This document shows positions 1 to 57,924 of a stretch of 57,924 nucleotides of DNA, piece by piece. Positions within the stretch are counted from its first letter, which is position 1. Each line of letters starts with the position of its first letter. The notes beneath the pieces are model-generated. The model was given only the letters and a program-made list of their open reading frames with translations, did not search any database and was not told where the DNA came from. A program made the position numbers and the translations under genes. The DNA comes from Reclinomonas americana ATCC 50394 (taxonomy: Eukaryota): the NCBI GenBank assembly GCA_048213135.1, contig PS015213.1, forward strand, positions 95,375 through 153,298, read 5' to 3'.

Positions 1-1371
1 AGCTACTACACACTGGCGCTGACCAAGGACGGAAAGGTGTATGAGATGGGTCGCCGGCATCGCGTGTACGGAAAGCACTCGGATCGTCCGCACATGTTGC
101 AGTGGTTCCAGCATCACGGAATCACTGTTCGGCGAATCGCCGCAGGAGCCACACACTTTGCTGCGATTGCAGGTCTCGCCGTCCCTGATTCATTCTTTGC
201 TTCTCCGACACTGAGCGCGTGTGCAGACAATGGGAATCTGTACATGTGGGGTGAGGCGACGGGAGGTCGCCTCGGGCGTGCCGGACTCGGCAACTACCAC
301 GACACACCCGTGCATGTGGAGACTCTGACCGGCGTCACTGACGTGGCTTGCGGGCAGATGCACACGGCTGCTGTTGCAGGTTTCGTTTGCGGGCGGCAGT
401 ACTCTCTGTGATTTTGCTCACACATCAAACAACAGAGTCCGGCAAGGTGTTTGTGTGGGGCGATGTTGCGTTGCTCGCTTCCGGTCGCCATTGTTTCCCT
501 ATTCGCACCCCCCCTTTTTTTTGCTCATGCTGCGAGCAGAACCACGCACTCCAACTCGGCCCGTTCAGCTGTCACAACTGGGAGACACCGGCGGATTTGA
601 GCTCGGTGGAGGAACGTGGCAGTGGCGACTTGCACGGACGACGGGCGGAGCGCGTCGTGGCGAGTGGCCACATGACAGCAGTGCTCACTGGTGAGAACAC
701 AAAAAACAGTCGCGGTGAGGTTGCGTCGTCTCACTGCTACNNNNNNNNNNNNNNNNNNNNACGCTCGCAGACACGCAAGGAGTCATCTCGTGGGGCCAAG
801 GTGACCACGGAAAACTGGGACTCGGCAGCGGTATCACCGTGCAGAGGGTCAGCAGCGCGTTGATCGCCACACATCACCCCAAATAGATCGCCGACTGTCT
901 CTCCTTTGTGTTGTGACAGATACCGCTGTCAATTGACGAACTGCGTGGCGCGGAGAGACGAGTGGCCAGCTTGTCGCTGGGTTTGGCTCACGCCGGCGCC
1001 ACGACCAGTTACGCGACGCTTGTTTCTCTCTCTTGTCTCACTCGTTACTGCCGCTGATGCCGCGCCACTGGAATGCAGCCTCGGGCGAGCTGTGGATGTG
1101 GGGCCACGGCGGTCATTTCCAGCTCGGTCTCGGCAATCTCTTTGACAAGTACAGTCCCACCCTCGGTACGTTATGTGCCATGCAGTTTTGGTTGCATCCC
1201 TGTGCCTCACTGTGCATTGTAGTGAGTGGACTGGGCGAAATGTTTGTCGAATCGGTATCGTGCGGTCTCCATGTTGCGTCCATCGCACCGCTGTCGTCTT
1301 TGACGTGAATCTGTCTGACTGTTGTTTCAATTGCAAAGCACACATTGGTCGTGTGTCGAGCGCCCGCCTAG
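1..1371 (+). CDS. RCC1-repeat (beta-propeller) protein, 3' part, spliced; 5' end lies outside the window
   Basis: Spliced translation gives successive RCC1 repeats (IAAGATHFAAIADNGNLYMWG, VACGQMHTAAVAESGKVFVWGDNHALQLG, LSLGLAHAGATTTSGELWMWG, VSCGLHHTLVVC). Introns include 173-226, 465-539, 1008-1078 and 1273-1338; TAG at 1369-1371. Confidence 0.9.
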
Positions 1372-1600
1372 TACATACACAGTGCACAAGCGGTAATTTC
1401 ATTCCTTCACGCTGCACACGCACACACACACACACACACACCTGCATAAAGAAAAATACGATTCACGTATATAAAGAAAAGACGAAAGTATTGCGAAACA
1501 GGATACAAATGGAGAGAGAGAGAAGAGAGGGATTAGGGACGTTAAACAGAATACATGCAGAACAAAAAATCAAGCAATAATAATGATACACCACCACGCC

Positions 1601-4600
1601 CTATCGTGATGAGCGATCGCCGCCGCCGGTACCGCTCGGGGCTGGCGCAGCGCGTGCCGCTGTCGCTGCCGACGGCATCTCTGGGGATTTGGGCGCGGAG
1701 GGAGGCTTGGGAAGTGGGGGCACCACCAGCTGTCGATGAGGCACAGTGGGATCGGATTCGGCGCGACGCGGACGACCGAATTGCGGCGAGAATCGACGAT
1801 CCGACAGGATCTGCACCTGGTCCGGAGTGTCGTCGTCGCCCGTGGTTTCGTCGTCATCCAAATCGTCGTCGCCCATCAGCACGTCACGCAGAATCGGTTC
1901 CGATCGAGACGGATGTGCTGCAGGATGCTGCTGCTGCTGCTGTTGCGGCTGCTGCAGTTGTTGTTGTTGATGCGCCGACGACGAAGNNNNNNNNNNNNNN
2001 NNNNNNNNNNNNNNNNNNNNNNNNNNNNNNNNNNNNNNNNNNNNNNNNNNNNNNNNNNNNNNNNNNNNNNNNNNNNNNNNNNNNNNNNNNNNNNNNNNNN
2101 NNNNNNNNNNNNNNNNNNNNNNNNNNNNNNNNNNNNNNNNNNNNNNNNNNNNNNNNNNNNNNNNNNNNNNNNNNNNNNNNNNNNNNNNNNNNNNNNNNNN
2201 NNNNNNNNNNNNNNNNNNNNNNNNNNNNNNNNNNNNNNNNNNNNNNNNNNNNNNNNNNNNNNNNNNNNNNNNNNNNNNNNNNNNNNNNNNNNNNNNNNNN
2301 NNNNNNNNNNNNNNNNNNNNNNNNNNNNNNNNNNNNNNNNNNNNNNNNNNNNNNNNNNNNNNNNNNNNNNNNNNNNNNNNNNNNNNNNNNNNNNNNNNNN
2401 NNNNNNNNNNNNNNNNNNNNNNNNNNNNNNNNNNNNNNNNNNNNNNNNNNNNNNNNNNNNNNNNNNNNNNNNNNNNNNNNNNNNNNNNNNNNNNNNNNNN
2501 NNNNNNNNNNNNNNNNNNNNNNNNNNNNNNNNNNNNNNNNNNNNNNNNNNNNNNNNNNNNNNNNNNNNNNNNNNNNNNNNNNNNNNNNNNNNNNNNNNNN
2601 NNNNNNNNNNNNNNNNNNNNNNNNNNNNNNNNNNNNNNNNNNNNNNNNNNNNNNNNNNNNNNNNNNNNNNNNNNNNNNNNNNNNNNNNNNNNNNNNNNNN
2701 NNNNNNNNNNNNNNNNNNNNNNNNNNNNNNNNAGGAAGAGGCAGTGGAGGCCGACGACGAGGCCGACAGGCGCGACGCATGAAGCGGCGACGCCAGTGTG
2801 ACCTTGATCTGCGTTCCGTGCTCCTGCCCGGGTCCCACGACTGACGACGGCGCCGAGTGCGACGACATGCGAACACGGTGAACGCTGGAGGGCGCTGACG
2901 AGTGCAGCGCGCGAGGTGGAGAGCGCGTACGCCGACTGTGCAGCGGTCCGCGTGGCCGCTGTGACGGCGCCGACAGCGGGGAACCCTCGTCGGGCGAACG
3001 CGGTGACAGCACGTCGTCCGGCGGCACCTCACGCTCATGCAAACTGTACGATTGCGGCTCAGGGTGCATGGACGAACCGGGGCTTGGCGTGCCCGACGAG
3101 CCGCCGCGACCGCCACCGCCACCAGCACCACCACCGCCGCTGCTGCTGGTCACCGATAGCGAATCCGGTTCCGATGCATTCTCCTGCGACCGTGTCCGNN
3201 NNNNNNNNNNNNNNNNNNNNNNNNNNNNNNNNNNNNNNNNNNNNNNNNNNNNNNNNNNNNNNNNNNNNNNNNNNNNNNNNNNNNNNNNNNNNNNNNNNNN
3301 NNNNNNNNNNNNNNNNNNNNNNNNNNNNNNNNNNNNNNNNNNNNNNNNNNNNNNNNNNNNNNNNNNNNNNNNNNNNNNNNNNNNNNNNNNNNNNNNNNNN
3401 NNNNNNNNNNNNNNNNNNNNNNNNNNNNNNNNNNNNNNNNNNNNNNNNNNNNNNNNNNNNNNNNNNNNNNNNNNNNNNNNNNNNNNNNNNNNNNNNNNNN
3501 NNNNNNNNNNNNNNNNNNNNNNNNNNNNNNNNNNNNNNNNNNNNNNNNNNNNNNNNNNNNNNNNNNNNNNNNNNNNNNNNNNNNNNNNNNNNNNNNNNNN
3601 NNNNNNNNNNNNNNNNNNNNNNNNNNNNNNNNNNNNNNNNCGCGTGTTTGATGGGAACCATCAGCGACCCTCGTGGAGACGGCCGTCGCGGAGGAGGCGG
3701 CGGTCCGACGAGTGCACGCGGCGAACCAACGAGTCCCATCGATGCTGGGCTGCTGAGATCGTCGCCAAAGCTGCACGTACACGGTGTGAATCCTCACATT
3801 TTCTTGGCCCCGCCTACGCCAGCACGACAAGCAAACCAACTACGCACCTCGACGCCGTGCTGTTGCACGACAAGCTCGAGTCCAGTCCACTACCACCACC
3901 ACCACCACCACCAGCTGCACCAGTGGTGCCTCCCACACTCAGCGAACCCGACAAGCCGGCGCCACCGCCAGAGACACCAGCAGAGGCACTGCCTATTGAC
4001 AAATCGGCACCGGCTGGCGTGCTCGCCGCGAAGCTGCCGGTGAGGGCACTGGAATCGAGCGCATCGCTCGAATGGTCATCGTCGCCGGGGTCGGAGAACG
4101 CCGGCTCTGGCGAATACGCATCGCCACACAGCTCCCGACTCAGCGGCTCAATGTGTGCACCAATGAGGGCCGCCGGTGGCGACACCGTGCCCTGCGGCAG
4201 CGACGACGACCGAGGCCGCGACGACGACGAGGAGGAGGAGAGCGGTGAACTCACATCGCCGTCCTCCATCGGGTACAGGCCGTCGGGATTGGTGTTGTGG
4301 CGCAGCCAAATGTTGCCGCGGTTCACCAACAGTGCCGGATCCACGGTGGCGGCAATGTTGGGCGACGACTGCCCACGCGACACGACGGCACTGAATGGGG
4401 CGGTGCTGCTGCCGGTCGACGCGTGATGCGAGTGAGCCGAGTGCACTTGCTGTTGCTGTTGCTGCTTGCGCCGTGCATGCAGAGGCATGCGCGCACCGGG
4501 CGGCAGATTTTGCTGGTGGAAGTGCTGCTGATTGTGGCCCGTGGACACAAACGAGCCACCGACAAATGGACCAACAGTCGATGCGTGCCGTGAGTTTTGC

Positions 4601-7600
4601 ATCTGTGGCATCACCACATTANNNNNNNNNNNNNNNNNNNNNNNNNNNNNNNNNNNNNNNNNNNNNNNNNNNNNNNNNNNNNNNNNNNNNNNNNNNNNNN
4701 NNNNNNNNNNNNNNNNNNNNNNNNNNNNNNNNNNNNNNNNNNNNNNNNNNNNNNNNNNNNNNNNNNNNNNNNNNNNNNNNNNNNNNNNNNNNNNNNNNNN
4801 NNNNNNNNNNNNNNNNNNNNNNNNNNNNNNNNNNNNNNNNNNNNNNNNNNNNNNNNNNNNNNNNNNNNNNNNNNNNNNNNNNNNNNNNNNNNNNNNNNNN
4901 NNNNNNNNNNNNNNNNNNNNNNNNNNNNNNNNNNNNNNNNNNNNNNNNNNNNNNNNNNNNNNNNNNNNNNNNNNNNNNNNNNNNNNNNNNNNNNNNNNNN
5001 NNNNNNNNNNNNNNNNNNNNNNNNNNNNNNNNNNNNNNNNNNNNNNNNNNNNNNNNNNNNNNNNNNNNNNNNNNNNNNNNNNNNNNNNNNNNNNNNNNNN
5101 NNNNNNNNNNNNNNNNNNNNNNNNNNNNNNNNNNNNNNNNNNNNNNNNNNNNNNNNNNNNNNNNNNNNNNNNNNNNNNNNNNNNNNNNNNNNNNNNNCCG
5201 AGCATCAGTAGCGGAGACCGAGTGCGGGCAGTGTTGCGCGGCCGCGACACGGCAATGTTGCGCTGTGTCGGCAAGGTCAACACAACATCACAAGCAAGCA
5301 GTAGAAAGAAAGTCACTCGCACACACTCACCAGTGACGGGTGACGAGTGTCAGCCAGCAGGGAGCCAGGACCATTGGGACCGCCTCCCTGCTGTGCGCTC
5401 GGGGCACCGGATCCTGTGCCACTGCCTGCACCGAGAGTCGACGGAGACGGTGATCGAGAAGAGGCGCGTGACGTGGGCGCTGACAGCGAGGAGCGCGCGG
5501 CGGCCAGCGACGACTCGGTAGCCGCACGGATGAGTGGCGCAAACATCACCGGCACGCCGGCAGCTGCTGCCGCCGATGCTCTGGAGGCTGCATTGGCGGC
5601 GGTGGCGTTTGCTGCTGCTGCCGCGGACGAGCCATCTGCATTTCAATAACAGAACACAGTGAGAAAGAAGCGACTCTCACAGCGCGACACACTGGCTCGC
5701 GACGCACCAATGACAGGGAGAGAGTTGCGATGCAAGTCAATCGCCGTTGATGTCGCATTCGGATCGAAATCTCCGACCATGAAGGGATGCACCGTGTCGA
5801 ACGCCGAATTGGATCGGGGACGCTCGTGCACGTAGCCCTGGAAGGCGAGGCGAGTGGCTTGCGACGGCGACAAATCCACTGACGGCGACTCGGCGCCACC
5901 ACCTTCACCTCCGGCACTGCTGCCGCGACCACTGCCCGCTGCCGACAGACTACCGTCGTTGGATGGATTGGCGCGCAGAACTGCGTGCGAAACACCAGGC
6001 TATACAAAAAAAACAGTCAGACGCCGCCAAGGAAGAAATGTCACTGCGCAATACAAGCGAGCGCGACNNNNNNNNNNNNNNNNNNNNNNNNNNNNNNNNN
6101 NNNNNNNNNNNNNNNNNNNNNNNNNNNNNNNNNNNNNNNNNNNNNNNNNNNNNNNNNNNNNNNNNNNNNNNNNNNNNNNNNNNNNNNNNNNNNNNNNNNN
6201 NNNNNNNNNNNNNNNNNNNNNNNNNNNNNNNNNNNNNNNNNNNNNNNNNNNNNNNNNNNNNNNNNNNNNNNNNNNNNNNNNNNNNNNNNNNNNNNNNNNN
6301 NNNNNNNNNNNNNNNNNNNNNNNNNNNNNNNNNNNNNNNNNNNNNNNNNNNNNNNNNNNNNNNNNNNNNNNNNNNNNNNNNNNNNNNNNNNNNNNNNNNN
6401 NNNNNNNNNNNNNNNNNNNNNNNNNNNNNNNNNNNNNNNNNNNNNNNNNNNNNNNNNNNNNNNNNNNNNNNNNNNNNNNNNNNNNNNNNNNNNNNNNNNN
6501 NNNNNNNGCAACTTCACGCGAACTGTGCTCACTGCTGTCGGCTGCCTCGCTGTCACTCGTGTAGCACACATCAAGATGCGTGCTCGGTGTCATTGTGACC
6601 TGCAGCCAGTCACAAAATATAGTGAGAAGAAGCAATGAAGAATAGGGGTGGGGGCACGCCGCACCTGGTCCAGTGACAACGATTCAGGCGTGACGCCGCG
6701 GTCACTCAGCGTGCCGCCCATGTGCGGTGACCCACCCGGCGTCATGCCCGACGAGCCGGTGCTGTCGACCATGGTTGCGGCAACACTGCTGTATGCCGGA
6801 GCCTGCTCGGAGGTCAGCTTTGCCAAGTTGGTGGCGTTCGTGATGTTGAAGCCGAGGAACTCGTCGGCATCACTGTCGTCCGAATCGACCTGCTCGATAA
6901 AGGCGAGCCAGTGAGCTTGCGGGAGAAGGGGTGAATACGCAAAAAGAAAGCTCGCGCACTGTTTCTGCATCGGCGGCTGCACTGCGCTCCTCCTTGGTGC
7001 TGGAGTCCGAGCTCGAGGACTCGTCGTCGTCGGAAATGACGTCGGACTTGATGGGATACACAGCGTGTCTCTCTGCACGAGTGGTGATGAGTGAGGGCGA
7101 CACGCACAGCATCATTGCGCGACTGCGGGTTCACACCTTCGAACAGCGACGTGTCCTCGTCGTCACCAGTCTCGGGCACATACTCGGCTCGCTGACGATG
7201 AATGTTCTCCCAGTCAATGGTCGCAAAGAACGGGTGTGCCTTGATTTCAGCAGCACCTGCGACACGCGATGACAATACCGTGAGGATGCGGCGGGAGAGG
7301 GCAAATAGAGAGTCCTCATCACCCACTCACCATGCGCTCCAAGTCGACGATTGGGATCACGACGCAAGAATTGCTTGATCAAGTCGCGTGCATCCTCCGA
7401 CACATCCTCCGGCAGATCGTCCCACGGAATGTCTACGGTAGGGTGAAGTGAGCACAATCGCGCACGTAGAGTGCAATGGAGTGCACGTCGGTGGCTCAAC
7501 TCAGTGAGAGAATGTTGTCAAAGATGGCCTCGGGCGTGGCGTCGTTGAAGGGTGGGCAGCCGGTGAGGAACTCGAAGAGACAGACGCCAACCGACCACCA

Positions 7601-10600
7601 ATCGATCGCGGCACCTGCGTCGTGCATGAGTTCGCCGCCGCCGTGTACAACATACACGATGGAGCCCAGCAAAAGCACGCAACTCTGTTCGAGGCCGAGC
7701 AGCACCTCGGGACTCATATAATCCGGACTGCCGCACGCGCTGCCGAGACGCTCGCGTCGACCCTCTTTCTCACCAGTTGGCGACATGGCCGACGGCGGTG
7801 GGCGCATCGGCGACTTGCCAGTCATGTCCACCGTCTCGTCCATGAACGGGTCTGTGTGGTTGATACACAGATGTGGGTTCAGTAAAAAGATGGTGAGTAC
7901 CGGTGATGATGCAAAGCACGTCACCGTCAACAAGGCCGGCACGAGCGAGGCCAAAGTCAGACAGCTTCACGTGTCCATCGGTTGTGATCAGCATGTTATC
8001 CGGCTTGATGTCACTGCGGTGGCGGAAACAATCAATGAGTGCGAGACAGCTGACATATTTTTTCTTTCGTTTCACACACAAAAACACACCGGTGCAAAAT
8101 GTCGTGCGAATGCAGATACTCGAGAGCCAACACGACTTCGGCAATGTACTGCCGTGCCATGTTCTCGGGGAACTCGCCGAAACGCTGCAGCAGCGCGAAC
8201 AAGTCGCCGCCGTTGAGGAACTCCATCACCAGATACAAATGTTTCTGCGATCCAGACGAGTCGCGAGTCAGCATCATACCAACACGCCACACACACACAC
8301 ACAAGCTATCGTTTTTGTGCTTCACCTTGCCCTGGAACGAGTAGTAGAAGCGCACGAGGAACGGGTTGCTGGTCTGCGCCAGCACATCGCGCTCGGCCAG
8401 CACGCGCTTCACCTGCTTCCGCCGCACCATTTCGTCCTTGCGCAGCACCTTGATGGCGTACAGGTCGCCAGTCGAGAGCTTGCGCGCCAGGAACACGCGA
8501 CCAAATGCACCGCGAGAGATGCACTTGATGACACGGAAGTCGCGAATCGACATGCCACGCGACTTGGGCTGTGTGAGCGCCACGAGGTGAGTCAGCCACC
8601 CACCAGTGGGGAGAGAAAAGACTAGCACCGCCCTTCCAACTCACCCTTGACAACAGGCGCGGGGTATTCGGCTCCGACAGGAAGCTGGCATCCTCGCTCT
8701 CCTCGAATCGTCGCGGAGTACTCATGTTGGACGCTGCGACACTCGATCGGTAAGGGAGGAACTTCTGTTCTGTGACATGCCTTCCTCTACGCAACAAAAC
8801 GTGTCGTCGCCAACAAAGTCGTGCGCAAAGGGCGAGTGCGACTGGCCCGACATGTGGTACGTGTGATCGCCGTGCATGTTGGGTGACTGCGCCTCGGAGC
8901 CAAACAACTGCGGCGAGTCCGACGAGCCCGGCAGGCGTGGCGAGTTGTAATCCGACCCAGAACCGGCACCCGTAACACCAATCCCGAATGGATTCGAGTC
9001 CAGCGAGATGTGCGGGTGTTCTTGACTTCGGCTCGACAGCTGATGCCACCAATCATATCATCATCAGTGGGAAGTGATCAGGGCGACAGACGAAACGACA
9101 ACTGGCACTCACCGGTGAGTCAATCTCTTCGCGTCCTCGTGGCACACGCGGCGACATCGAGTCCATGCTCTTCCTTCCGACGCCCAGCTCGGGATTCGGA
9201 CTGGGAGGCATCAGGCCAAGCTGTAACTAGCACAAAGCATTACCATGTATGAGCAACGCAATTGGCCAATGAAGCAAAAAGCTCTGCGCGTCGCAACTGA
9301 GTCCGGTTGGAACTGGTCCAGTGACGACGACGAGTTGCGACGCGAGTGCGTCCTCGATCCCGCCACCGTCGACATGTAACGACCGGCAGCCGACGCGGCA
9401 CCGTCCTTGAGTGCCGCCAGCTTGTCAGCCACCACACTCTCGATACGCCGCGCAAACACCATGAGGTTCTCGTTGATGTGTGGTGCACTCTCCTGCGTGG
9501 GGGAGGGTGAGTGACAGACAACTCGTGATGGTGAGAATCGAGGAGAGTACGCACTTGGATGAGATGGCTAATGTGCGAGAAGAGCGTCTGGCAAGCCACG
9601 GGCGACTCGTACGGGCCACAGTTCAGCTTCAAGACGCTGTGTGCCGACAAACGAAAGTGGTGAGTGAATTCTAGAAAACAGTGGAAGCAGGGCGACAGCA
9701 CACGCAACTGCATGGCCAGCAGGTACAAGTTTCGCATCACCGGAATGTCCGCATCCTCACAAGCATTCACCGTGGCCTCGTCCTGCACCAGACACAGATG
9801 AGTGAAAAATAGGGTGGTGATGCACATGGGAGAAGAGTACGTACCCAGTTCTCGGCTCCCTGCGGCATCTTCTTGCGCAACGCTCGTGCCAGCTGCGGCG
9901 GAGATGAGCACGTCGCCCGCAACACTCAACACGCCCACACACTTTCTCTTCGCCTCACCTTGCGTAATCTCTCGTCGCAGCTCGATGCCTTGACACCACT
10001 GTTGCTAAACTTGGTGCAATGGCGCGAATGCTCCTCCAGCATGTCCACTGGCACCACCTCCTCGCAGATGCGGCACAAGAGATCGAGTGCCACCGGGCTC
10101 TGCGGCGTCGGAGCCGGCAAGTCCGAGTGGCGTCGAATAAGTGGTGGTGCTGATCGCGCGCTCGTCGGTGGTGAATACGTGTAGCTGCCGACAGCTGTGC
10201 GCGGGCGATTGTGGTAAAGTGGCGGAACTGTGGGACTTGACCCATCTGCGTGCAGATGTCAATAAATGACGCGGGTGGCAAAGTCACCGCAATGGGCGAG
10301 AGAGAATGACACACACCTGCTGAATCGATAGATCCAGTAGACAACGGCTGAGGTGGCACGCCACCAACTTGCAGAGCGATCGGGTGCAGCGGTTCCAGCG
10401 CAGCCTATTCACATTTGTTTTCTTCGAGTCAGCTTGTGTGGAATCACCTGGAGTCACGCACGACACACAGCGATGTACCTGGTGCGCAGCACTGCTGCTG
10501 TCGTCGTCATCATCATCATTCCCCGCGAGGAGACGTCCGCGATATTGCCCGGTGCCACTCAGCTCGCCTGTCGGCGAGAGCGGCACTGAGGCCATGCTAT

Positions 10601-14176: not shown

Positions 14177-14885
14177 ATGTCAGGCGCTTTCGTTCGTGGT
14201 GCGCGTCGCGCAATGTCATCGAGTTGCGTCTCCTCTGTCTGTGTGCCTGTGTGAATGCACACTCCTTCCTCTGTGTGTGTGTGTGAGTGTCATGTTAACT
14301 GTCGACCGCATCTTGCATCTTTGAGCGTATCTCTCTTTTCTCACACTTTGTGTGTGGTAGGTGCTGGTGGCCACGGCAACTCGACCAACACCTGGCGGCT
14401 GGTCAGCTACGCCGGCATGGTCGCCGTGCCCGTGTTTGTTGCGTCGACACACATACACACAAAGAGAGAGAAATGCAACTTGTGATGAAACTGATTCTGT
14501 GTTGTTGCACAGGGCGCGGTGGTGCTCTTCGGCGGGTTGCGTAACACGCTCCACTTGTGCCACACACACGCACGCACGCACAGAGAGGGAGAGGGAGAGA
14601 GAGAGACGGGGCATCGAGATGGCGCATCACTCTCTCACACTCTCCCTCCCCCGTGTCTCTTTTTGCCTTGTGTGCTCCACAGTGACCACAGCCACCACCA
14701 CGAGCAGAAGCCGTTCGCCTACAAGACGTTCCACAAGCAGGCCACGGTGTCCCACAAGCCCTTCCCCTGGGCCAACAAGGACTGCACTCTCTTCCAGCCT
14801 GACGTTGCGTCCCAGCAAGAGAGAGAGCCTCCAGTGAGTGGGTTGCTTACTTGTTATACAGTGCGGCAAGGAGGAGCACCACTAA
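14177..14885 (+). CDS. COX6A: Cytochrome c oxidase subunit 6A (5 exons)
   Basis: Exons 14177-14222, 14361-14437, 14513-14535, 14683-14803 and 14862-14885 give MSGAFVRGARRAMSS...NTWRLVSYAGMVAVPVFGAVVLFGGDHSHHH...KPFPWANKDCTLF. This shows a presequence, one TM helix and the KPFPW..TLF signature. Confidence 0.88.
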
Positions 14886-20723: not shown

Positions 20724-20736
20724 TAAATCAGTCGAC

Positions 20737-34535: not shown

Positions 34536-34573
<38 letters not shown>

Positions 34574-44102: not shown

Positions 44103-44279
44103 TCGAGCGACACACAACAACAACAACAACAACTACCAATCTTTCGCCACGACCATCGTCGTGTGCCACACAACAACCACACACACAATTACCACACCGC
44201 CACTCTCTGGATGGAATAATAAACCAAACAACAATCAAGAAACATGCACAACACGCAGCACAAGCAGTACCTTTCTTGT

Positions 44280-47285: not shown

Positions 47286-49773
47286 ATGAGGTTTGTCGAC
47301 TTGCCTCTGCCTGCAGTTGCGTTGCCGCTCTTCCCGCACCTCATCTCTCTCCTGCCTCTCACTGCACTGTTCGCGGTGTTGCAGGAGGTGTGGCACAGTT
47401 TCGTTCTCCGCTCATCGCCCTCTGCTCTCTCTTCCCCCAGTCTCACTGCGAACGTGCACAGATGTGTTCTCGTTTCTGACATCCGCAGATGTGCGATCAG
47501 TGGCCACCGTCGGTGTCGGTGTTGCGCCGCTGTTTGGTACGCGCGAGAGTGAGTTGTCAGTTCATACATGACTGTCTCTCTGTGTAATCCACACTCCACG
47601 TAGTGTGCGGCCTGCACGAGGTGACAATGGCGTTGCGTGCTGGCACGTACCAACAGCTGCATCGGCTTCTTCGCGAGGAGGAGGCCGTGCGCATGTGGCA
47701 TCGCTTCCGGCTGGAGGTGACTGCGCCGGTCAAGGAGAGTCGTCGTGCAGCGTCGTGGTTCGTGCCGGCGTTGCTGTCGCGTGCACCGCAGTTGCAGTCG
47801 CTGGAGATCGATGCGAGTTGCGTTGTTGTTGTCGGGCGACGTGACTTGGTGTCGATGGCCGATCGATACGCAACAGTTGTTCCGCCGGGTGTCGGTTCGC
47901 CGGAGATGCGTGACGCACAGCACTGGTGGCTAGGCTGTGCTGGTGGCCCGGGTGTGGATGGTGGCGATGCAGATGCAGATGACGACGATCTGCTGCTACA
48001 ACTGGGGGACTTTGATGCCGACGACGAGGATTTTCGCCAGCAAGATGACGACTTTGATGACGACGACGACGACGACGACGATGACTACGAGACTGCAGGC
48101 GGTGGTGCTATGCTCGCGGTGCGCATGTGGGAGGCGTCGCAAGCACGACGAGCTGCGCGGCATGGCGGTGGTAGTGGCGGCGGTGGAGTTGAGCGTACGC
48201 TAACCACGGCGCAGCGGTGGTGGGCGAGTGCACTGGAGGCGGTGTCGGGCGCCACTGCCCTCCGATCGCTGTGCATCCGCTTTGAGCGACCTCCAGTGTC
48301 GGTACTGCATGCTGCCACGTGTAGTCCGCTGCCCTCTCGCGCCCTGCTGTGTCAGCTGCGCATGCTGACCATTGGCGGCGTGGTTCTGTCGCTTGGTTGC
48401 GTTGGGAAAAAGTGTGTGTTGGGAGCATTTTATGTGGCTACGCTATTCATCCGCAGTGTTTTGCAGACGATCATGTGGCCCTCATGCAAATCGTGTGCAC
48501 GGATCCCGCATGCACGACGCAGCACCTCACGCTGTCGGGTGCGCTGTGTCTTTGGCGGTTTCTTCGCGTTGTGCCACAAAAATACTGAAAAATGAGAGAC
48601 CTCGCCACAGGCACTCTGCCGCTGGCCCGCGCAACCGACATTCAGCGCACAGTAGAGGCGCTGGCAGAGCAGCTGGGCATGTCGGCGAGTCGCGCTCTGC
48701 CACTACTGACGTTTGAGTTTGCCGACAATCAGCTCGATCCACGGGAGCTGCAACCGTTGCTGGCAGTGGTTCGCGAACACCGCAAGCTGGTGCACTTTGG
48801 TGTCGGCGGCCACCGCCTGTTGGGGTCGACGGAGGGCGTGCAGCTGGTGGCCAACGAACTGATTCGGCGAACGTCCTCGTTGCGCTCGCTGTCGGTGGCC
48901 GGCGCTCCGGGAACGCTGGTTTCGCTGGACCCCATTTTCGATGCCATCAGCTCCGACGGGGTGTGTCGACTCACCTCGTTGGACTTGTCGCGCGTGTGGA
49001 GTTGCGCAACGCGCACGCCAGAGAACGCCACAAACGCACCCACTCTGTCCTGACATCTGAGATACAGCACTCGACAATATGAATGTGGCCGAGCCGGATC
49101 CTGACGCCATGTCGGTGGCTTGGGCGGCGCTGCGCGAATCGCCGCTGGTCACACTCAAGTTGAATGGTGCGTGCATGAGGCGCGTGTTGGCGGCCTTTCC
49201 GCCTTTCTCATTCTCGCGACACAGAGAACTGGCTCCACGAGGACGATCTGGAGATGCTGGGCACGGCGGTGGTGTGGAGCAGCAGTCTGGAGGTGCTGGA
49301 GATCAGCGGCATGATCCTGGATCCGGACTCGATTGCAGGTATCCTCATCCCAGTTATCCGCGTGTTGAAGGGTGTGGCTCAAGCCGGGGGTACGCAGCGT
49401 TCGACAACCTCGTGCGACTGCTGGTGAATGACAGCGCGCTAAAGACACTCATCGCTCGTGGCAACGATCTGAGTGGTGCTGGCCTCGTCTCGGCGCTGCG
49501 TCACAATGAGACACTCCAGCATTTGGATGTGCAAAGTTACCACGCTTCTCTTTTTTATGACTGCGTGCGCTGGACTCACACACGGCCTGTTCTGCAGACA
49601 ATGCCGTAAGTGCAACCACCGTCCAGCGTCTCACCGACTCACTGCTGCTCAATGGCGGTCACGTGCTGCGATTTCTTGATCTGCGCTACAACGACGTGAG
49701 CCGCGATGCGGAGACGTGTGCATATACCGCGAGCACTCTCGTTGCTGCCGGCGTCTTCGACATCCGGCTTTGA
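47286..49773 (+). CDS. F-box / RNI-like leucine-rich repeat protein
   Basis: Exons 47286-47315, 47385-47397 and 47462 onward give LPAEVWHNVFSFLTSADVRSVATV (F-box). LRRs include LQSLEI, LRSLSV, LTSLDLS, LVTLKLN, LKTLIARGNDL, NETLQHLDVQNN and LRFLDLRYNDV. TGA at 49771-49773. Confidence 0.8.
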
Positions 49774-49811
49774 AGTCCGCGGGATACATGGGCTACTGGT
49801 ACATTTATTAC

Positions 49812-52668
49812 TTACAGATGATGGAAATGGATGGACTTGGAGCGACGATTGAAACGCTGCTCCCAGTCGGTCGCGTCAGGAGTTCTTGCGAGCGCCTGCT
49901 CGGCTTCACCTGTCGAGGCGACTGTCAGGTGTGCAAGAAGTGGCGGTCCTATGCTTACGCACACATAGTGTGACTTACCATCGCTGTTGACTAGTGGTAC
50001 AGAGAGCGCACGCAAACGGGCGCTCTCGGTGGTCGGCAGCATGGCGACAGACGCCTCCAACTCGATGGTTTGCGCCGATTGTGCGTTAGGGTCGGTCGCC
50101 GTATCTTGCAAGTGCACTGGCTGAAACGGGAGAGGCGTCAGCTTGAAGGCACGGAAGCCGTCGCAGTTGGTCAGATGCTCGTTCTCCACACGAATGAAAC
50201 TCCACACGACACGGCGAGTGACTTCGGCGGCGGCGAGACCGACTTGCACAAACGGTCTCGCCAGACTGTTGCGTACAATAATGGTAACCTGCACGACGAG
50301 AGTCACGACAAGACAACGGGGGGGAGAGCACGCGCGCACACACGTACCTGCACGATCCATGCCATGCGGAGAACACAGTTGAGGAAAAAGGCCACATAGT
50401 ACACAAACTTGGGGAACGTCAGTTGCTGCAAAAAAAAAAAAACGCAAGCAATGAGCACGCATGCATGAGAGTTGGCAGAGAACGAAGCCCATATGGCGAG
50501 CTCTCAACCTTGCGAAGGAGCCAGTGTTTCTTTTGCTTGAAATCCAACAGTCCCCAGTCCATCTGTTTGCGGCGCGCAAGTGGGTACATGCACGCATGTA
50601 ATGAAGCAAGCTCTAGGCGCCGCACAACGAAACCTTCAAGTCCCAGTACAGACGAAGGACCGCCGATACGACGTAGCTGACGATCAGTGGCACCAAGTAG
50701 CGCCCATCGTACGTCTCGAGCACACCAAACACGACGTTGGGGAACGCCGAAAAATACTTGACGGCGTTGGCCAGATGTGGCCACGCGTGACGCGTGTCTC
50801 GATACCGCCGTAAGCATTGCAGCATGCGCCACAGATACGGCAAGCCCAGTGCCAGTGCAGTGATTGTCCGATTCAGCGTCAGACCAAGCGGAACCTCACT
50901 TGTCGCCACGGCCGCCATACTCGCGAAGAAGTCGTTCAGCGCGGATGTCAGGCTGGTGAAAATGTCGCCGAGGAACACGTCGCCAAACGTCACCATGTGG
51001 AACGGCGCCGTCACGATACGGAAGGTGGTGCGCAGGAAGAGCATGCGACCCGAGTAATTCATGATGCGAAACGGGTTGATCAGCACCAAGACCACTGCAA
51101 CGGAACGTAAGTGAACACAGAGAATTCGAAGACGGCTATCGCGAAGGCTCACACACTCGCACCGACCGCAACCACAGGATACACAAACACTTGTCGTGGA
51201 ACGGCGGTCTTCAGGTCGGACGAGATAATGGTCATCCACACCAAGAAGAAGACGCCACAGACCGCCATGAAAGCCGTGGCCACTGCCAGTGCCCTATGCG
51301 GGGTGAGGGTGGTGCGAGGGTCGAAGCCAAAGATGAACACGTAGTTGATCTTGTACAGTTGCCACACGTATGTGTTGAGGCTCCAGCCGACAAAGGCCAA
51401 GCCAATCACAAACAGGCAGCGGAATAGAGCCAGCTCGGCGGCGTAGTGCGCCGAGTTGATACTCGTCGACACATCGCCGTTGAACATGAAGCCGAGGGCC
51501 ATGAGGCACGATGCTGTCAGCCCGATGAACAAACCTCCGAGGAACGAGTCGGCGTGATGCGGTTGGCGCATTCCGCGAACCGACAGCGACGACGACGAGG
51601 TGGGCATGCGCGGATTGTGCACAAACAGCTTCTCGAAGAGTCTCTCCAGCTGATCGCACACCTGGCTGAGCTCAACCGCGTGCCGACCCAAATCCCACTC
51701 CTCGATCTTCTGCTGCGTGTCGGCCAGCGTCGCCTGGGGGGCGTGTCGACGCGCGCGCATTTTCTTGCGCACTTTCTTGAGCATCTTGAGTGCGGCCGTC
51801 ACGTTGAGAATGCTTTGCGCGAGATGCATGGAAGAGTGTCAGTCAGGCAGCAGGGGGGGCAAGCAACAGCACTCAAAAGATGAAGAGGAGGGCTCACCAA
51901 AAGTTCTCGAGGTGGAACACCATCGAGTACTGCTCCTTGAACGTGCGCTCCGCCGCGCTCAGCAGATCCGCGTACTCGGAGGCCGGCATTCTGAGCGCGT
52001 CCTTGGAGAGGAGCGAGCGAGGCGCCACCGTCTTCAGTTCCTCCCACCGCTGCATTGCCGGTGCCACGCGTTCCGCAAAGAAGCTGCTGGCCTTGGCCAT
52101 TTGCACGCGGTACGCCTCCAGAATGAGCTCCACGGCCAGCGCGCGCGTCACACACGGCACTTGGCTCGCCTCCAAAGCATCCAGCTGCAATGAGTTTGAG
52201 TGGCGTGAGAGGAAGAAGCGTCCAAAGGCGACGCGCACGCACGCATGCGCACGCACCTCGACAATCGCCGACACGCCCAGGTTGAAGTGCCGATTGATGT
52301 GACCGAGGCGCTTGATGACGGTGAACGAGTCACTCGCCGGCAGACTCGGCTCACTGCTGGAATCCACTTCCACAGCTGCCGCTCCTGCCGCACCGCCGCT
52401 AACCAGTGACACAAGCTCGGTGTTCGCGCCCTCCGACGACACGGAATGCGCTCGGTGCTCACGTAGCTTTTGGCGCACACATGCGTGAACAGAGTGCACA
52501 GAGAGAGAGGAGAGGAGAGGAGAGGGAGAGAGAGAGGCCGCTCACCGGAGCAGGGAGTGCGAGGGCGTCGCCGAGGATTGAGACCATTTTCTTCAGCGCC
52601 TTGTAAGCAAAGTACTGCGAGAACCATTCGGGCACCGAGTACTCGTAGAGACGACGCCCGAATTTCAT
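49812..52668 (-). CDS. SPX-EXS domain phosphate exporter (XPR1/SYG1/PHO1 family)
   Basis: SPX: MKFGRRL....[13 protein letters not shown] and [99 protein letters not shown]. Confidence 0.95.
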
Positions 52669-53235: not shown

Positions 53236-54578
53236 ATGAGTGACAGCGCAGCGAATGGCCACACGTCGTCGCGACCGACGCAGGAGCTAAAGATCCGCGA
53301 CTTGAACACCAGAGAGGGACCAGGTGCGTTGGCGATCGCATCTCATCGTCGATCCAATGTGTCGACGTCACACACACTCATGATCGCACACACATGCACA
53401 GGAATGACCACTGGTCGCGCCCTCGCCATTGTGTGTCTGGTACTGGTCGGCGGAGCGATCGCTTGCTGCGTCCTCGGCCTCAAGTCGTGGCACTGGATGT
53501 TGCGTGTGTGTGTGTACGGTTTCGCAGCTCTCCGTCTGAAAACTCACGCTGTCACTCTCCTCCCTCTCTCCGCGTGCCTCCGACGACACAGCAAACAAGA
53601 CTGCAGACCGGCGTACTATTTCGAAGTCGGCCTCCGCAATGGGTTTGTTTGCTGCAACAGCCAATCATGAAACTTGTCACTTTCCGCTCTTGTGTGACAC
53701 TGGCGTGTGCACGCAGGTGGCTGTGCACGAACTACGACGACCCTGTGAATGGACCGGCGTGCTACACGGGGAGCACGAGTGACGCGCAGATCAATCGCGT
53801 CGTTGCGTGTGTTTTTCGATATTTTGTAGGTGGTCTGATCACATCGGTGAACGCGTTTCCCTCTCTCGACGCCGCAGACGCTCGGTGTCGGTGCCAGTGG
53901 CACGGGCATGGCCTGCCTCCTCTTCGTCTTCCTCTTGATCTATGTGATTCGACCGCTGACCGCGATCAAGTGGGTGTGCGCGGTGCGTCCAACAGAAAAC
54001 TGTCGATGTTGTCGTCGTGTCGTCTCACATCGTGTTGCATGTGTTTGTCATTGCAGGTCATTTCCTTCATCTCGTGGGGGGTTCGTGCGATGCTGGTTTC
54101 CCTGTGCCTTAGTGTGTGATCGCTGTGCTCATGCATTTTTCTTCTGCTGCAGCTGTGCCTCGCCGCTGTCGCGTACTACACCAACCAGAACACGCTCGGA
54201 CCGTGCGACCCGCTGTACGGAGTGAACGGCAAGGCAGTTGCGTCGAATGCAGGGATGCATGTGTAGTGCACCTGGCGTCGTGCTTCCTCTCACTCGCCCC
54301 TTTCCGATTGCAGAAATGGGACTGGAGCTACATCATCTTCTGGTACGTGAACTGCTGCTGCACTCGCGTGTGGCGTGCTGCCCTCCGTGCTCACACGCTA
54401 CGCATGCAGGGTCGGCACGTGGCTCGTGTTTGTGACGCTCATCCTGTCCTTCTTCTTCCGCGATGACGCCGCCGCTCGCCGGGCGGTGAGTCCCTCCGCC
54501 GCCAACTACACTCCATCGGGACGGGCAAAGGATGTCGAGGCTGGCCATGGCACGACCGACAACAAGTCAGCCTGGTAA
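53236..54578 (+). CDS. Claudin/PMP22-like four-TM membrane protein (alternative start at 53404)
   Basis: The spliced product has four hydrophobic segments, a first loop W..GL..C..C (HWIKQDC..EVGLRNGWLC..PAC) and WDWSYIIFW before TM4. The family assignment rests on pattern only. Confidence 0.6.
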
Positions 54579-54781
54579 TTCGATATCGCAGTGCGTTTTT
54601 TATGTATAGAATACTCGATTAAGAATCAGTCGGCGTGCTCTCTTTTTCTTCGTCTGCGTTTGTCTCGCCTTGAATAAATATTTGCAAAAGCTGCAACGTT
54701 CATTCGGAGCGTTCCGAACACATCGTATTGGGTGTCTCACTTTTGTCGCTCTTCTCGCACGCACAGGCAACCCCGCCCCCC

Positions 54782-56994
54782 ATGGCATCTGGTGAGTGCA
54801 CGTCAGAGGCACTTGCACACACTGTGTTTCACAGTCGACTGGGAGAGGGAGAGAGAGAGAGCACTGCATTGCAACGAGAAGCGACGACTGATGCATCGGA
54901 GCATTGTGTGTGTCACCATTCACTCACTCATTCGCACTCGTGCATGCATGCACGCACGCAGCTGCAGGATCCACCAACCGAATCGCCGCGACGATGCTCG
55001 ACCTCGTCGGTGGTGCGTGCGTGAGAGACAGAGTGTGTGGTCGTCTGATTGCATGTGCTCACGTGAATGCACGACAGGCACACCGATGGTGTACCTCAAC
55101 CGCGTGACCGAGGGCTGCGTCGCTCGCGTCGCCGTCAAGCTCGAGGCGCAAGAGGTGTGTCTGTGTGTGTGTCTGTGTGTGTCTCGACAATGGTGGACCG
55201 ACATGTCGCACTCACGCCCTCTCCTCGCACGCGCGCGCACGCAGCCTTGCGGCTCGGTGAAGGACCGCATTGGCAAGGCGATGCTGGATGACGCCGAGGA
55301 GCGCGGCATCATCACACCCGGCATCACGACCATTATCGAACCCACATCAGGGTGCGCACAGCGGCAGCAAGCTGTATCTCTCACTCGGGTTTGCAGCGTT
55401 ATTCACAGCTGACTTTTCTCGCTTGCTTGTTCTTTTCTTTTCCCTCTCGTGCGCAGCAACACTGGCATTGCGTTGGCCTTTGCCGCCGCCGTCAAGGGCT
55501 ACAAGGCCATCCTCGGTGAGGCCGCCCTCCCTTTCAGTTGTATGCTGTGCTGTGTGTTCGGTCTGCTCACACTTTTTTTTCGTTTTCCCACGCAACACAG
55601 TGATGCCGGATAGCTTCTCGATGGAGCGCCGTGTGTTGTTGCGTGCGTTTGGTGCCGAGTTGGTGCTGACGCCGCGCGAGTTTGGCATTCCCGGAGCTGC
55701 AGTTGAGTTTACCCGACATGTCCCTCCGCCTTTATCTGTCGCCTCACTCTTGCCCCCACTCCCTCGTGCTGCAGCGCAAGGCCAGGCAGATGCTGGAGGA
55801 GATCCCGAACTCGTGGATGCCCAACCAGTTTGGCAACCCAGCCAATCCTGCGATCCACTACAACACGTTGCGTTCCTTGTGCTGCGGGTGTGGAACGAGT
55901 GGAAAAGTGAAGGCTCACTCCACACGCACACGCAGCACTGGCCCGGAAATCTGGCGCGACACCGCAGGCGAAGTCGACATTTTCGTCGGTGGTGTGGGCA
56001 CTGGTGTGTGAATTCGACGAGTTTCGCCCCCTGCTCTGCTGGCTCACTCATGTGCGTCCTTGTGTCAGGCGGCACCATCTCCGGTGCTGTCAAGTTCCTG
56101 AAGGAGCAGAAGCCGAGTGTGAAGGTGCCGCCATAACTGATCGTGCTGTGTGCACATCTCCTCCTCACTGATGCACGCGCGTCGGCATGCAGGCGTTCGC
56201 CGTGGAACCCGTCGAGTCGGCTGTCCTCAGCGGCAACAAGCCCGGTCCGCACATGATCCAGGGCATTGGCGCCGGATTCAAGCCAGATGTTGCGTGCGCG
56301 TGTCGCGCCGACAAGAATCGACAATGTCTGTGCTCACTGGCAGTGCAGATCTATGACAGCGAGGTGGTCGACGGAATCATCCAGGTTTCGTCACAAACCG
56401 GTGAGTCTAGCGCAGCGCACTTTTGCATGATTTGTGTGTGTGCTCACGAAGCTGGCACACAGCTCTGACAATGGCGCGCCGCCTGCCCAAGGAGGAAGGC
56501 ATCTTCTGTGGCATTTCCAGCGGTGCAGCGGTGTGTGCCAGCAGCGTGCAGGGCAGTTGTGCTCTTTCTCCCCCCCCCCCCCTCACCTTGTGCACAGATT
56601 CACTGCGCAGTGGAGCTGGCAAAGCAGCCGGAGAACGAGGGCAAGCTGATTGTCGTTGCGTCTGTCACAGTCATGCAAGCAAAGTCGGTTTCGTTGGCGT
56701 CCCCCTCCTCATCGCTTGCGTATCTCGTCAGGTGGTGGAGCCCAGCTTTGGCGAACGCTGTTGCGTCGCAATCATTGCTGTCTGTGCTGTGTGAGTTTGT
56801 GTATTCACTCGGATGCGCTTTCTGCAGACCTGTCAACTGCTCTGTTCAAGGATCTCTTTGATGAATGCTCCGCCATGCCCACGGTTCCGTGCCCACCACC
56901 ACCGGCCGCGGCGGCTCCTGTCCCAGCTCCTGCTCCTGCTCCGTTGTCGCCAAATTCCGGTGCCGGAGCCTCGACCAACTCATCCGCTCTCTAA
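54782..56994 (+). CDS. cysK: Cysteine synthase A / O-acetylserine (thiol)lyase, 15 exons
   Basis: [24 protein letters not shown] (PLP lysine), [60 protein letters not shown] and PSFGERYLSTALF. Confidence 0.96.
55867..55935 (+). other. Representative intron with shifted donor (C|GTTGCGT...CAG)
   Basis: Removing exactly this interval restores the conserved cysteine synthase motif HYNTTGPEIW (AC|C). Confidence 0.9.
56760..56827 (+). other. Representative intron with shifted donor (T|GTTGCGT...CAG)
   Basis: Removing this interval restores GERYLST (codon T|AC = Tyr). Confidence 0.9.
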
Positions 56995-57268
56995 AGCACA
57001 CCCCGTGCTTCCGCTTTGTTGGCGAGAATGTAGTGGAGACTGTTTCGTTAAGTCACGCGACTGCAATCTTTGCATTTCCGAGAGCCTTGACCCTTCGTCC
57101 TTGTGCACTTCAACCCCTGCATCTGACTCTTGATCCTTGGCACGACAACTAGAAGGTGATCAAGGTTGGCCCTCCGCGCACGTCGCTTCCGTCTCGTCGC
57201 AGTTGTCTCGTGTCCTCTTCGAGCGTCCTACTTCGTTGCTCCCTTTTCCGTCTCGTCGAGAACAAGGA

Positions 57269-57924
57269 ATGCTGTTCAGAACCGCACGGCGGTACATGTC
57301 ATTCACATGGCCGGGGTCAAGAGCCCTCGATCAGATCGTCAAGCTGCCTCTTCTCATGCGGTCCGCGCAATGCATTCCATGCCAGTCCTTCATTCAACGC
57401 TCACTCTGCACGCACACAGTGAACCCAAAGAACGTGTGGCAGCCATCTGGTCGGAGGTGTGTGTGTGTGTGTGTGCACGTGTGTGTGTGCACGTGTGTGT
57501 GGGTGTGCATTGTCGGGGAAGTCCTCTCATTCCCATGTTGCATGCAGCATCATCTGAGCCGGAACGATGCTGTCGCAATGACTCTCAACTCGAACGTCTT
57601 CCAGGACTTGCAGGCGCACTGCAAAGCATGGTCTCCTCTCCTCCCTCCTTCTATCCCCGCGCTAGCCGTCGTCTCCTCACGTCTCTCCCTCTGCAGTCCC
57701 ATGTTTGTCTTGCCACTGATCAAGGGCGAGGGCTACTTGAGTATGGTGGCACAGTTCCAGGGTCAGCATTGTCTCATGACACCACTGGAGGAGTACCGCA
57801 CGAAGAGTTGAGTGGGAGGGAGGGGAGGCGGGGGGAGAGGGACGACAGGCTGAACCGCTGGCGCCTGCAGGTGTGAATGCAATGCCGGCATTCACGATTA
57901 CGTTTTACACTGAGCTGGAGAAGG
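57269..57924 (+). CDS. ATP11: Mitochondrial F1-ATPase assembly factor ATP11/ATPAF1, 5' part (runs off the window)
   Basis: LDQIVKLPLLM.E..ERVAAIWSEHH, CPMFVLPLIKGEGY..VAQF, MTPLEEYR and FTITFYTEL. Confidence 0.87.

Follow-up and report, generated by a model that had tools for sequence, protein, structure and literature searches.

Gene organization of the window and a second class of 5' splice site

The stretch of Reclinomonas americana ATCC 50394 DNA analysed here (contig PS015213.1, positions 95,375 to 153,298 of the forward strand; hereafter the window, numbered from 1) comprises 57,924 bases with a G+C content of ~59% and 13 runs of N. The window is gene-dense, and its genes are split by many short introns, whose predicted median length is 69 nucleotides (nt; 5-75% of them between 57 and 77 nt). 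Exon translations combined with family searches name an RCC1-repeat gene, a large AGC/MAST-like kinase, an equilibrative nucleoside transporter, a family X DNA polymerase, an organellar-type seryl-tRNA synthetase, a giant cyclase/TPR gene, a leucine-rich-repeat gene, an SPX-EXS gene and a cysteine synthase. In these genes, ordinary 5' splice sites (donors) of the form GTRNG stand beside a second, abundant class that begins with GTT, and it is this class, in which the remainder of the consensus is displaced by one base into the intron, that is described below. Positions are numbered relative to the cleavage site, where -1 is the last base of the exon and +1 the first base of the intron.

The initial annotation had listed 46 GTT donors, and all 46 coordinates indeed carry GT followed by T on the given strand (38 GTTGCG, 4 GTTGAG, 2 GTTACG, 1 GTTACC and 1 GTTGTG). 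The hexamer GTTGCG occurs 82 times on the two strands of the window, compared with 60.5 +/- 7.4 times in dinucleotide-preserving shuffles, in which a count of 82 was reached once in 100; GTGCGT occurs 89 times. As the excess of GTTGCG is modest, the real question is whether the sites act as donors. The commonest hexamers of the window are CACACA/TGTGTG (221 occurrences each) and ACACAC/GTGTGT (183 each), and the GT/CA runs found within many introns (e.g. 57459-57500) give rise to spurious GTGTG donor candidates.

Introns were predicted with a dynamic programming gene finder that combines codon log-odds with a branch-plus-acceptor matrix and accepts any GT as a donor. The finder was seeded with the cysteine synthase gene and retrained on its own output, and GTT donors were never specified. 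When a flat donor model was used (the donor-blind run), GTTGCG was already the top donor hexamer, heading 19 of 176 introns as compared to 13 for GTGCGT, and 21 of the 46 listed sites were recovered. The donor table subsequently learned from the finder's own predictions (192 introns) was led by GTTGCG (34), followed by GTGCGT (26), GTGAGT (12) and GTACGT (8), and the run that used it (the self-trained run) reproduced 39 of the 46. Among the 159 predicted introns of at most 130 nt in gene models of at least 100 codons, 70 have a GTRNG donor, 37 have GTT[AG][ACT]G and 52 have other donors, so that the GTT class accounts for 23% of short predicted introns, close to the 'roughly a quarter' that had been claimed for it. 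GTT donors are present in 11 of the 24 gene models, and nine of the ten models with the highest scores have them; GTT introns adjoin ordinary ones within single genes, as in cysteine synthase (5 of 11 introns). Five further short introns are predicted to start with GTTTCG (41791, 47398 and 53519 on the plus strand; 50633 and 28074 on the minus strand), in four cases followed by T, and these may be weaker members of the T+3 class in which T replaces G at +4 (GT-T-TCGT).

Alternative donors were sought within 24 nt of each of the 46 sites. No in-frame GTRNG alternative is present at 37 of them, and 17 have no in-frame GT whatever within this distance. The finder does make errors: in the ordinary intron at 24420-24485 on the minus strand, the self-trained run picked GTCAAG at 24485, which in an alignment to homologues produces a two-residue deletion, and the correct donor according to this alignment is GTGTGG at 24479, as the donor-blind run had chosen. 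The alignment exposed the misplaced donor, and the method is thus able to detect such errors; the same case indicates that the 52 'other' donors include finder errors and are not all genuine oddities.

Junctions fixed by homology

To the extent that neighboring exons match a protein family profile, the position of a junction can be read from the profile itself; exons were searched one by one, and a junction was taken as exact if the two exons land on adjacent profile positions. The cysteine synthase gene was parsed by hand into exons separated by 11 introns, five of which start with GTT, and its exons were searched separately against NCBIfam. In total, eight junctions were set by homology (the first eight rows of Table 1): five in cysteine synthase and one each in the seryl-tRNA synthetase, the protein kinase and the SPX-EXS gene. 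Removal of the intron at each of the eight restores a continuous protein that matches its homologues, and the predicted cut positions there are exact. The HYNTTGPE and GERYLST motifs, which the initial annotation had used to pin two of these junctions, hold up in this comparison, as the spliced model is free of gaps relative to the homologues at both. The N-terminal halves of the cysteine synthase homologues P0241 and P0227 are unreliable, and P0001, which is duplicated and chimeric-looking, was left out of the seryl-tRNA synthetase comparison.

The remaining sites are placed by the gene finder, by partial profile matches or by the in-frame alternative check, and they differ in strength. The junctions at 465 and 1273 fall in what we take to be RCC1 motifs, and those at 45552 and 45740 in what is presumably a universal-stress-protein motif; the exons are too short for a family search in each of these cases, and all four are weak members of the class. 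In the DNA polymerase X gene, the exon downstream of 21504 matches DNA polymerase lambda, and the upstream exon gave 0 matches to solved structures; as GTGATG, 3 nt further downstream, would serve equally well as a donor, the one at 21504 stays ambiguous. For 57807 the sole backing is an open frame, and 15796, which spans an N gap, and 53499 are without support.

Table 1. Introns of the window with a GTT donor. Coordinates are window positions; DB and ST, recovered in the donor-blind and the self-trained run, respectively; check, in-frame alternative check; kb, kilobases.
Intron	Strand	Donor	Gene or location	Placement
55702..55774	+	GTTGAG	cysteine synthase	phase 0; TIGR01136 87-119 then 120-150; gap-free vs P0158, P0214, P0227
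55867..55935	+	GTTGCG	cysteine synthase (HYNT/TGPE)	phase 2; TIGR01136 150, split codon 151, 152; gap-free vs P0158, P0214
56289..56348	+	GTTGCG	cysteine synthase	phase 0; TIGR01136 224 then 225, next exons reach 243; gap-free vs 4 homologues
56655..56731	+	GTTGCG	cysteine synthase	phase 0; gap-free vs 4 homologues
56760..56827	+	GTTGCG	cysteine synthase (GER/YLST)	phase 1; gap-free vs 4 homologues
25147..25210	-	GTTGCG	seryl-tRNA synthetase, organellar type	phase 2; TIGR00414 185, split codon 186, 187; gap-free vs P0002, P0004, P0008, P0016
7615..7683	-	GTTGCG	protein kinase domain	phase 1; Pkinase 174, split codon 175, 176, extrapolated from ungapped match ends
50426..50508	-	GTTGAG	SPX-EXS gene	phase 0; EXS profile 264 then 265
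465..539	+	GTTGCG	RCC1-repeat gene	phase 0; junction GKVFVWGD/NHALQLG
1008..1078	+	GTTACG	RCC1-repeat gene	ST; downstream exon begins at RCC1 profile position 1
1273..1338	+	GTTGCG	RCC1-repeat gene	phase 0; junction SCGLH/HTLVV
7433..7500	-	GTTGAG	kinase domain	ST; profile has 10-position gap in variable kinase region
8734..8795	-	GTTGCG	kinase gene, N-terminal region	ST; no in-frame GT within 24 nt
9221..9297	-	GTTGCG	kinase gene	ST; no in-frame GT within 24 nt
9637..9708	-	GTTGCG	kinase gene	ST
14223..14360	+	GTTGCG	small gene at 14.0-14.9 kb	ST; weak, in-frame GTRNG alternatives exist
14438..14512	+	GTTGCG		DB, ST
14536..14682	+	GTTGCG		DB, ST
14804..14861	+	GTTGCG		DB, ST; no in-frame GT within 24 nt
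16740..16807	+	GTTGCG	membrane protein gene	DB, ST
18306..18373	+	GTTGCG	nucleoside transporter	ST
18426..18497	+	GTTGCG	nucleoside transporter	ST
19369..19437	+	GTTGCG	nucleoside transporter	ST; upstream exon = PF01733 59-92; no in-frame GT within 24 nt
19594..19651	+	GTTGCG	nucleoside transporter	ST; check
19826..19897	+	GTTGCG	nucleoside transporter	DB, ST; downstream exon = PF01733 190-232
20195..20260	+	GTTGCG	nucleoside transporter	DB, ST
20285..20344	+	GTTGCG	nucleoside transporter	ST; check
20783..20838	-	GTTGCG	DNA polymerase X, C-terminus (EEIF.H.ALG)	ST; no in-frame GT within 24 nt
21442..21504	-	GTTGTG	DNA polymerase X, palm	donor ambiguous; palm profile roughly continuous
26235..26389	+	GTTGCG		ST only; weak; 155 nt, atypically long
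28127..28192	-	GTTGCG		DB, ST; check
37753..37838	+	GTTGCG	giant cyclase/TPR gene	ST
38297..38369	+	GTTGCG	giant cyclase/TPR gene	ST
40074..40152	+	GTTGCG	giant cyclase/TPR gene	DB, ST
42006..42073	+	GTTGCG	giant cyclase/TPR gene	DB, ST; check
45462..45552	-	GTTGCG	universal-stress-protein-like gene	junction GSVSEYVV.H.HAPCS
45679..45740	-	GTTACG	universal-stress-protein-like gene, between N gaps	junction VDMI.I.IGSRGMGAIK
47316..47384	+	GTTGCG	leucine-rich-repeat gene	ST
48396..48466	+	GTTGCG	leucine-rich-repeat gene	ST; DB gives same donor, different acceptor
49001..49067	+	GTTGCG	leucine-rich-repeat gene	ST; check
49536..49597	+	GTTACC	leucine-rich-repeat gene	ST; check; no G at +6
53802..53877	+	GTTGCG	membrane protein gene	ST
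54237..54313	+	GTTGCG	membrane protein gene	DB, ST
57807..57870	+	GTTGAG	window end	open frame in phase 1 only; CTGAAC...CTGCAG at 3' end

Several of the genes in Table 1 have features of their own. The seryl-tRNA synthetase (24324-25923, minus strand) is of the bacterial/organellar type, and its nearest named relatives are red-algal organellar enzymes (~60-64% identity), which are no closer to it than bacterial ones. The gene model at 33768-44102 on the plus strand spans ~2,600 codons and ~29 introns; we take it to be possibly a soluble-adenylyl-cyclase-type protein, in which cyclase-like regions precede a long TPR-like tail, and the Pfam cyclase domain was not found in the three of its exons that were tested. 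The universal-stress-protein-like gene (45462-45740, minus strand) is flanked by two N gaps and contains exons of just 10 and 12 codons, with introns that start with GTTACG, GTAGGC and GTTGCG. A protein homologue search with the nucleoside transporter exon returned no homologues at E <= 0.001, the protein collection searched yielded neither a protein identical to one encoded in the window nor, for the seryl-tRNA synthetase, one from a close relative of the organism, and Rfam families gave 0 matches within the window at the gathering threshold.

GTT introns carry ordinary 3' signals

Apart from their donors, the GTT introns resemble the ordinary introns of the same genes. This was evaluated with the branch-plus-acceptor matrix, which was trained on ordinary introns only, and no coding information was used. 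A strong branch and acceptor lie 50-110 nt downstream of 26 of 77 GTTGCG occurrences and of 29 of 85 GTGCGT occurrences (34% each); the baseline over all GT hexamers is 1059 of 6914 (15%), and near-miss controls give 7-22%. GTTGCG is distributed 49:20 between the sense and antisense strands of the ten best gene models, whereas the controls GTCGCG, GTTGCC and GTTGCA are symmetrical. The two classes have similar median lengths (69 nt for GTT introns and 68 nt for ordinary introns) and similar phase distributions (16:14:7 and 29:26:15, respectively), and both contain a CT[CG]A[CT] branch motif (CTCAC, CTGAC or CTCAT), located a median of 15 nt from the intron end in the GTT class and 18 nt in the ordinary class. 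The acceptor is CAG in 35 of 37 GTT introns, the other two ending in TAG, and in 66 of 70 ordinary introns, and the acceptor scores obtained with the ordinary-intron matrix (6.79 for GTT and 7.72 for ordinary introns, p = 0.12) are far from the median of -1.03 for all AG sites. All 46 listed sites begin with GT and the modelled GTT introns end in CAG or TAG, the GT-AG ends of U2-type introns. Judged by these 3' signals and by the protein that their removal restores, the GTT introns are predicted to be ordinary U2-type GT-AG introns.

Two other identities were considered and rejected. The GTT introns are not of the U12 type, as none of the sites has an [AG]TATCCTT donor and the TCCTTAAC branch is absent from the window. 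A predicted 59-nt intron at 49339-49397 on the plus strand starts with GTATCCTCA, which resembles a U12 donor, yet TCCTTAAC occurs nowhere in the window. Neither do they form a family of introner-like mobile introns: an 8-mer is common to 18 of 666 GTT-GTT pairs and to 87 of 2415 ordinary pairs, and only one reciprocal blastn match, of 31 nt, was found among the GTT introns. By both measures, pairwise 8-mers and blastn, they have no common sequence beyond the donor motif.

The donor consensus is displaced by one base and lacks the exonic G

The composition of the two donor classes is compared in Table 2. Positions +4 to +7 of the GTT donors match positions +3 to +6 of the ordinary donors, which bears out the proposal that a second donor class exists, is real and abundant, and has a consensus displaced by one base. 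As had also been noted, its conserved G sits at +6 and +5 is mostly C (31 of 37). When positions +4 to +8 of the GTT donors are scored with the matrix of the ordinary donors, the log-likelihood is -129.0 with a displacement of one base and -556.1 in the same register. Aligned in this manner, the GTT class is the more uniform of the two, with C at the fourth footprint position in 31 of 37 donors as compared to 37 of 70 ordinary donors (p = 0.0016), and G at the third in 37 of 37 as compared to 57 of 70.

Table 2. Base composition (%) of ordinary and GTT donors; a base without a number is the sole entry for its position.
Position	Ordinary (n = 70)	GTT (n = 37)
-1	G 76	A 46, C 24, T 22, G 8
+3	G 81 / A 19	T
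+4	C 53 / A 29 / T 16	G 100
+5	G	C 84 / A 11 / T 5
+6	T 69 / C 23	G
+7	no consensus	T 62 / C 22

The initial annotation ascribed the displacement to a one-base 'register shift or bulge' without choosing between the two. The displacement itself stands, and of the two explanations the shift is favoured by the exon side, evidence that is new here, lay outside the earlier argument and separates the models. G at -1 is present in 53 of 70 ordinary donors but in only 3 of 37 GTT donors (p = 6e-12), in which A is the commonest base (17 of 37). A bulge keeps the exon pairing, since C9 of U1 remains free for a G at -1, and the G should therefore persist, whereas it is lost; the canonical exon pairing expected of a bulge at +2/+3 (G at -1 with C9) is not seen at these sites. 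The exon sequences of the GTT donors have a log-likelihood of -150.1 under the shifted model, -155.3 under background and -195.3 under the same-register model that a bulge implies. The A at -1 also distinguishes GTTGCG sequences that are used as donors (16 of 39) from those that are not (6 of 43, p = 0.007). The firm result is the loss of the -1 G preference together with the gain of A, and not an active shift signal.

Pairing energies were calculated with ViennaRNA for the standard U1 5' end (ACUUACCUG) as quoted in a review, which may not be the U1 of this organism. For CCA/GUUGCGUC paired with this standard sequence, the energies are +0.7 kcal/mol in the shifted register, +0.9 kcal/mol in the canonical register and +2.5 kcal/mol with a bulge. 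The shifted pairing is thus better than the bulged one by 1.8 kcal/mol, and by standard-U1 energies the shift is the better of two poor options.

How the GTT donors may be recognized

On balance, we lean towards a reading in which the ordinary U1 recognizes the GTT donors in a shifted register, a view that we hold with modest confidence. A GTT 5' splice site would then be the lineage's normal seven-base U1 footprint with one mismatch, cut one base further upstream: the ordinary site, G/GUGCGU, would be cut after its first G, and the GTT site, N/GUUGCGU, where N is mostly A, before that G, the two differing by a single base. In the shifted pairing, the +1 G would pair with C9 instead of C8, the +2 U would lie opposite C8 as a mismatch, the +3 U would pair with A7, and positions +4 to +7 (GCGU) would fill the places of the ordinary +3 to +6; on the exon side, an A at -1 would pair with U10. 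Every RNA-RNA pairing in this scheme we infer, whereas the class, its exact junctions, the displacement, the lost -1 G and the identical 3' signals are read from the DNA and the gene models built on it. For human 5' splice sites, U1 is described as doing no more than marking the site, which U6 goes on to define (PMC4856993). The cut would stay before the sole GU of the GTT donor because later steps (U6, U5, Prp8), not U1, fix the cleavage site, and U6 would have to move its pairing by one base into the intron or else accommodate a +3 U that is looped out.

A number of points weigh against this reading. Splicing itself is deduced from protein homology and a self-trained gene model, and the donor table of the latter is biased to frequent hexamers and may under-call rarer GTT variants. 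On the exon side, the shifted model stands only 5 log units above background (-150.1 and -155.3, respectively), and G before GTTGCG is also rare away from donors (7 of 43, as compared to 3 of 39 at donors, a difference that is not significant). The energies are similarly unhelpful: with the standard U1 the ordinary consensus reaches -6.0 kcal/mol as compared to +0.7 kcal/mol for the GTT consensus, every register of the latter being predicted weak, and the bulged pairing with G at -1 (-1.2 kcal/mol) would be better than the shifted one, yet G is not selected at this position. Given these weak energies and the unselected -1 G, standard-U1 thermodynamics leaves the frequency of the class unexplained. 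Lastly, the GTT donors converge on GCGU (C at +5 in 31 of 37) and not on the A-rich sequence favoured by the standard U1, and ordinary donors that are compromised by the lack of G at -1 lean in the same direction (GTGCGT in 9 of 17, as compared to 14 of 53 with G at -1, p = 0.07). This is a weak hint that the reader of these positions prefers GCGU, and such a reader could be a diverged or a second U1.

A dedicated U1 variant is accordingly the alternative that we take most seriously, while considering it unlikely. Either a second U1 (e.g. with A for C8) or a U1 with a diverged 5' end (ACGCAC for ACUUAC) would read A/GUUGCGU by full or near-full Watson-Crick pairing, so that the shifted-register geometry is retained and the class has a reader of its own. 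Such a variant would suit the abundance of the class (37 of 159), a consensus that varies less than that of the ordinary donors (G at +4 in 37 of 37 and C at +5 in 31 of 37), the poor pairing predicted with the standard U1 (+0.7 kcal/mol) and the drift of compromised ordinary sites to GCGU, and the U1s of Entamoeba, Mastigamoeba and Physarum provide precedents in the available text of bioRxiv 10.1101/2022.06.08.495308. The same text describes Thecamonas and Micromonas as favouring C at +4 yet having a standard U1; a preference for C at +4 thus need not imply a changed U1, and the hint drawn from GCGU is weak for this reason. A related and tentative possibility, which we also hold to be doubtful, is that two U1 small nuclear ribonucleoproteins operate side by side, where a U1 of the C8-C9 type would read G/GUGCGU and a paralogue altered at position 8, possibly with its 5' end diverged to ACGCA-, would pair perfectly with A/GUUGCGU.

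A bulged register, in which U1 pairs as usual with the exon and with +1 (and +2), one U of +2/+3 loops out and pairing resumes at GCGU, appears improbable. A single-base bulge at +2/+3 is listed among the noncanonical registers of human sites in the part of PMC4856993 available to us, the intron-side displacement fits a bulge as well as it does a shift, and with G at -1 the bulge would be the more stable of the two (-1.2 and +0.7 kcal/mol, respectively). However, that G should be kept or even reinforced, and it is present in 53 of 70 ordinary donors but in just 3 of 37 GTT donors; the exon model for the same register lies 45 log units below the shifted one, and with the A that the consensus actually has at -1, bulged pairing is worse by 1.8 kcal/mol. 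It is more improbable still that recognition is independent of U1 pairing, with the UGCGU that follows GU being read by a protein or by U6/U5 and U1 playing a minor part: predicted standard-U1 pairing is near zero in all registers, as this would have it, but the motif is the ordinary U1 footprint with one change, for which the same reader is the simplest explanation. That the class is an artefact of chance motifs picked by eye, misplaced boundaries or an extra T from sequencing or assembly is hardly credible, even for a draft assembly with 13 N gaps and an extra T that, lying within the intron, leaves the reading frame intact and frame arguments silent, as the donor-blind finder finds the motif unaided, eight junctions are set to the residue by homology, the downstream-acceptor association equals that of GTGCGT (34% each), a base-calling error would not pick sites without G at -1, and GTGCGT itself occurs 89 times.

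A genome in which about a quarter of introns carry a sharply defined shifted motif, and share their genes with ordinary introns, would provide a natural test system; the shifted and bulged registers of U1 that are known make up a small share of human sites and were established minigene by minigene. The class would bear on the handover from U1 to U6 when their registers differ, on what truly sets the position of cleavage, and on the co-evolution of splice-site classes with paralogues of small nuclear RNAs. Should the two-U1 reading hold instead, the intron population would be divided between two dedicated readers, and for a quarter of all introns the cut would fall one base away from the U1 register; this would amount to a natural, genome-wide uncoupling of the U1 register from the cleavage site, for which a matching tolerance of U6 or Prp8 would be needed. 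In practical terms, gene finders trained on GTRNGT will mis-annotate about every fourth intron of this organism, and genome-wide donor logos would mask the GTT class as noise at +3 to +6.

Comparison with known splicing systems

Full-text searches of the literature found no GTTGCG-type donor class and no lineage in which one shifted motif is used at about a quarter of introns; supplements were outside the scope of these searches, and a prior description is possible. The closest parallel is provided by human 5' splice sites, for which, as far as the available portion of PMC4856993 goes, shifted and bulge U1 registers have been shown experimentally, the validated noncanonical registers amounting to 1.5% of 201,541 sites, or to 5.1% in a first projection. 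For the underlying studies, Roca and Krainer 2009 and Roca et al. 2012, we follow the accounts in PMC4856993 and PMC9311317. As summarized there, the human shifted-register sites (Roca and Krainer 2009, per PMC4856993) carry a U at +3 directly after GU, and the remaining consensus lies one base deeper in the intron; the helix between the 5' splice site and U1 is displaced as a whole by one position, yet the cut is still made at GU, as would be the case here. The two systems differ in scale, as all human noncanonical registers together make up 1.5% of sites (5.1% projected; PMC4856993, available portion), whereas a single motif accounts for ~23% of short introns in the window. They also differ in kind: the human sites were experimentally tested, whereas the sites described here, which are predicted from sequence, carry a displaced, GC-rich GCGU that pairs poorly with the standard U1. 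The bulge and asymmetric-loop registers (Roca et al. 2012; Tan et al. 2016, PMC4856993, as far as its available text describes them) likewise place an irregularity of one base between GU and the consensus that follows it; in the GTT class, however, the exon-side pairing of the -1 G is lost (3 of 37 as compared to 53 of 70).

Other lineages resemble the window in the composition of their donors. In the portion of bioRxiv 10.1101/2022.06.08.495308 available to us, C is preferred at +4 in Thecamonas trahens and in Micromonas / Mamiellales (GYGCGY), in both of which U1 is standard. The ordinary class of the window is similarly G/GTGCGT-like, with C at +4 in 53% of donors as compared to A in 29%; that portion of the source mentions no GTT class for Thecamonas or the Mamiellales. 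According to the same text, donors and U1 have co-evolved in Entamoeba (donor GUUUGU with U1 ACAAAC) and in Mastigamoeba (GUACGU with U1 ACGUAC), and Physarum reportedly has both standard and modified U1 variants. The likeness to Entamoeba, so far as that text describes it, is that T at +3 is a mainstream, lineage-wide feature of the donor, and that donor and U1 may have changed together. In Entamoeba, however, a single atypical consensus, placed in the ordinary register, serves nearly all introns, whereas individual genes of the window combine two classes of donor, one of them displaced by a single base.

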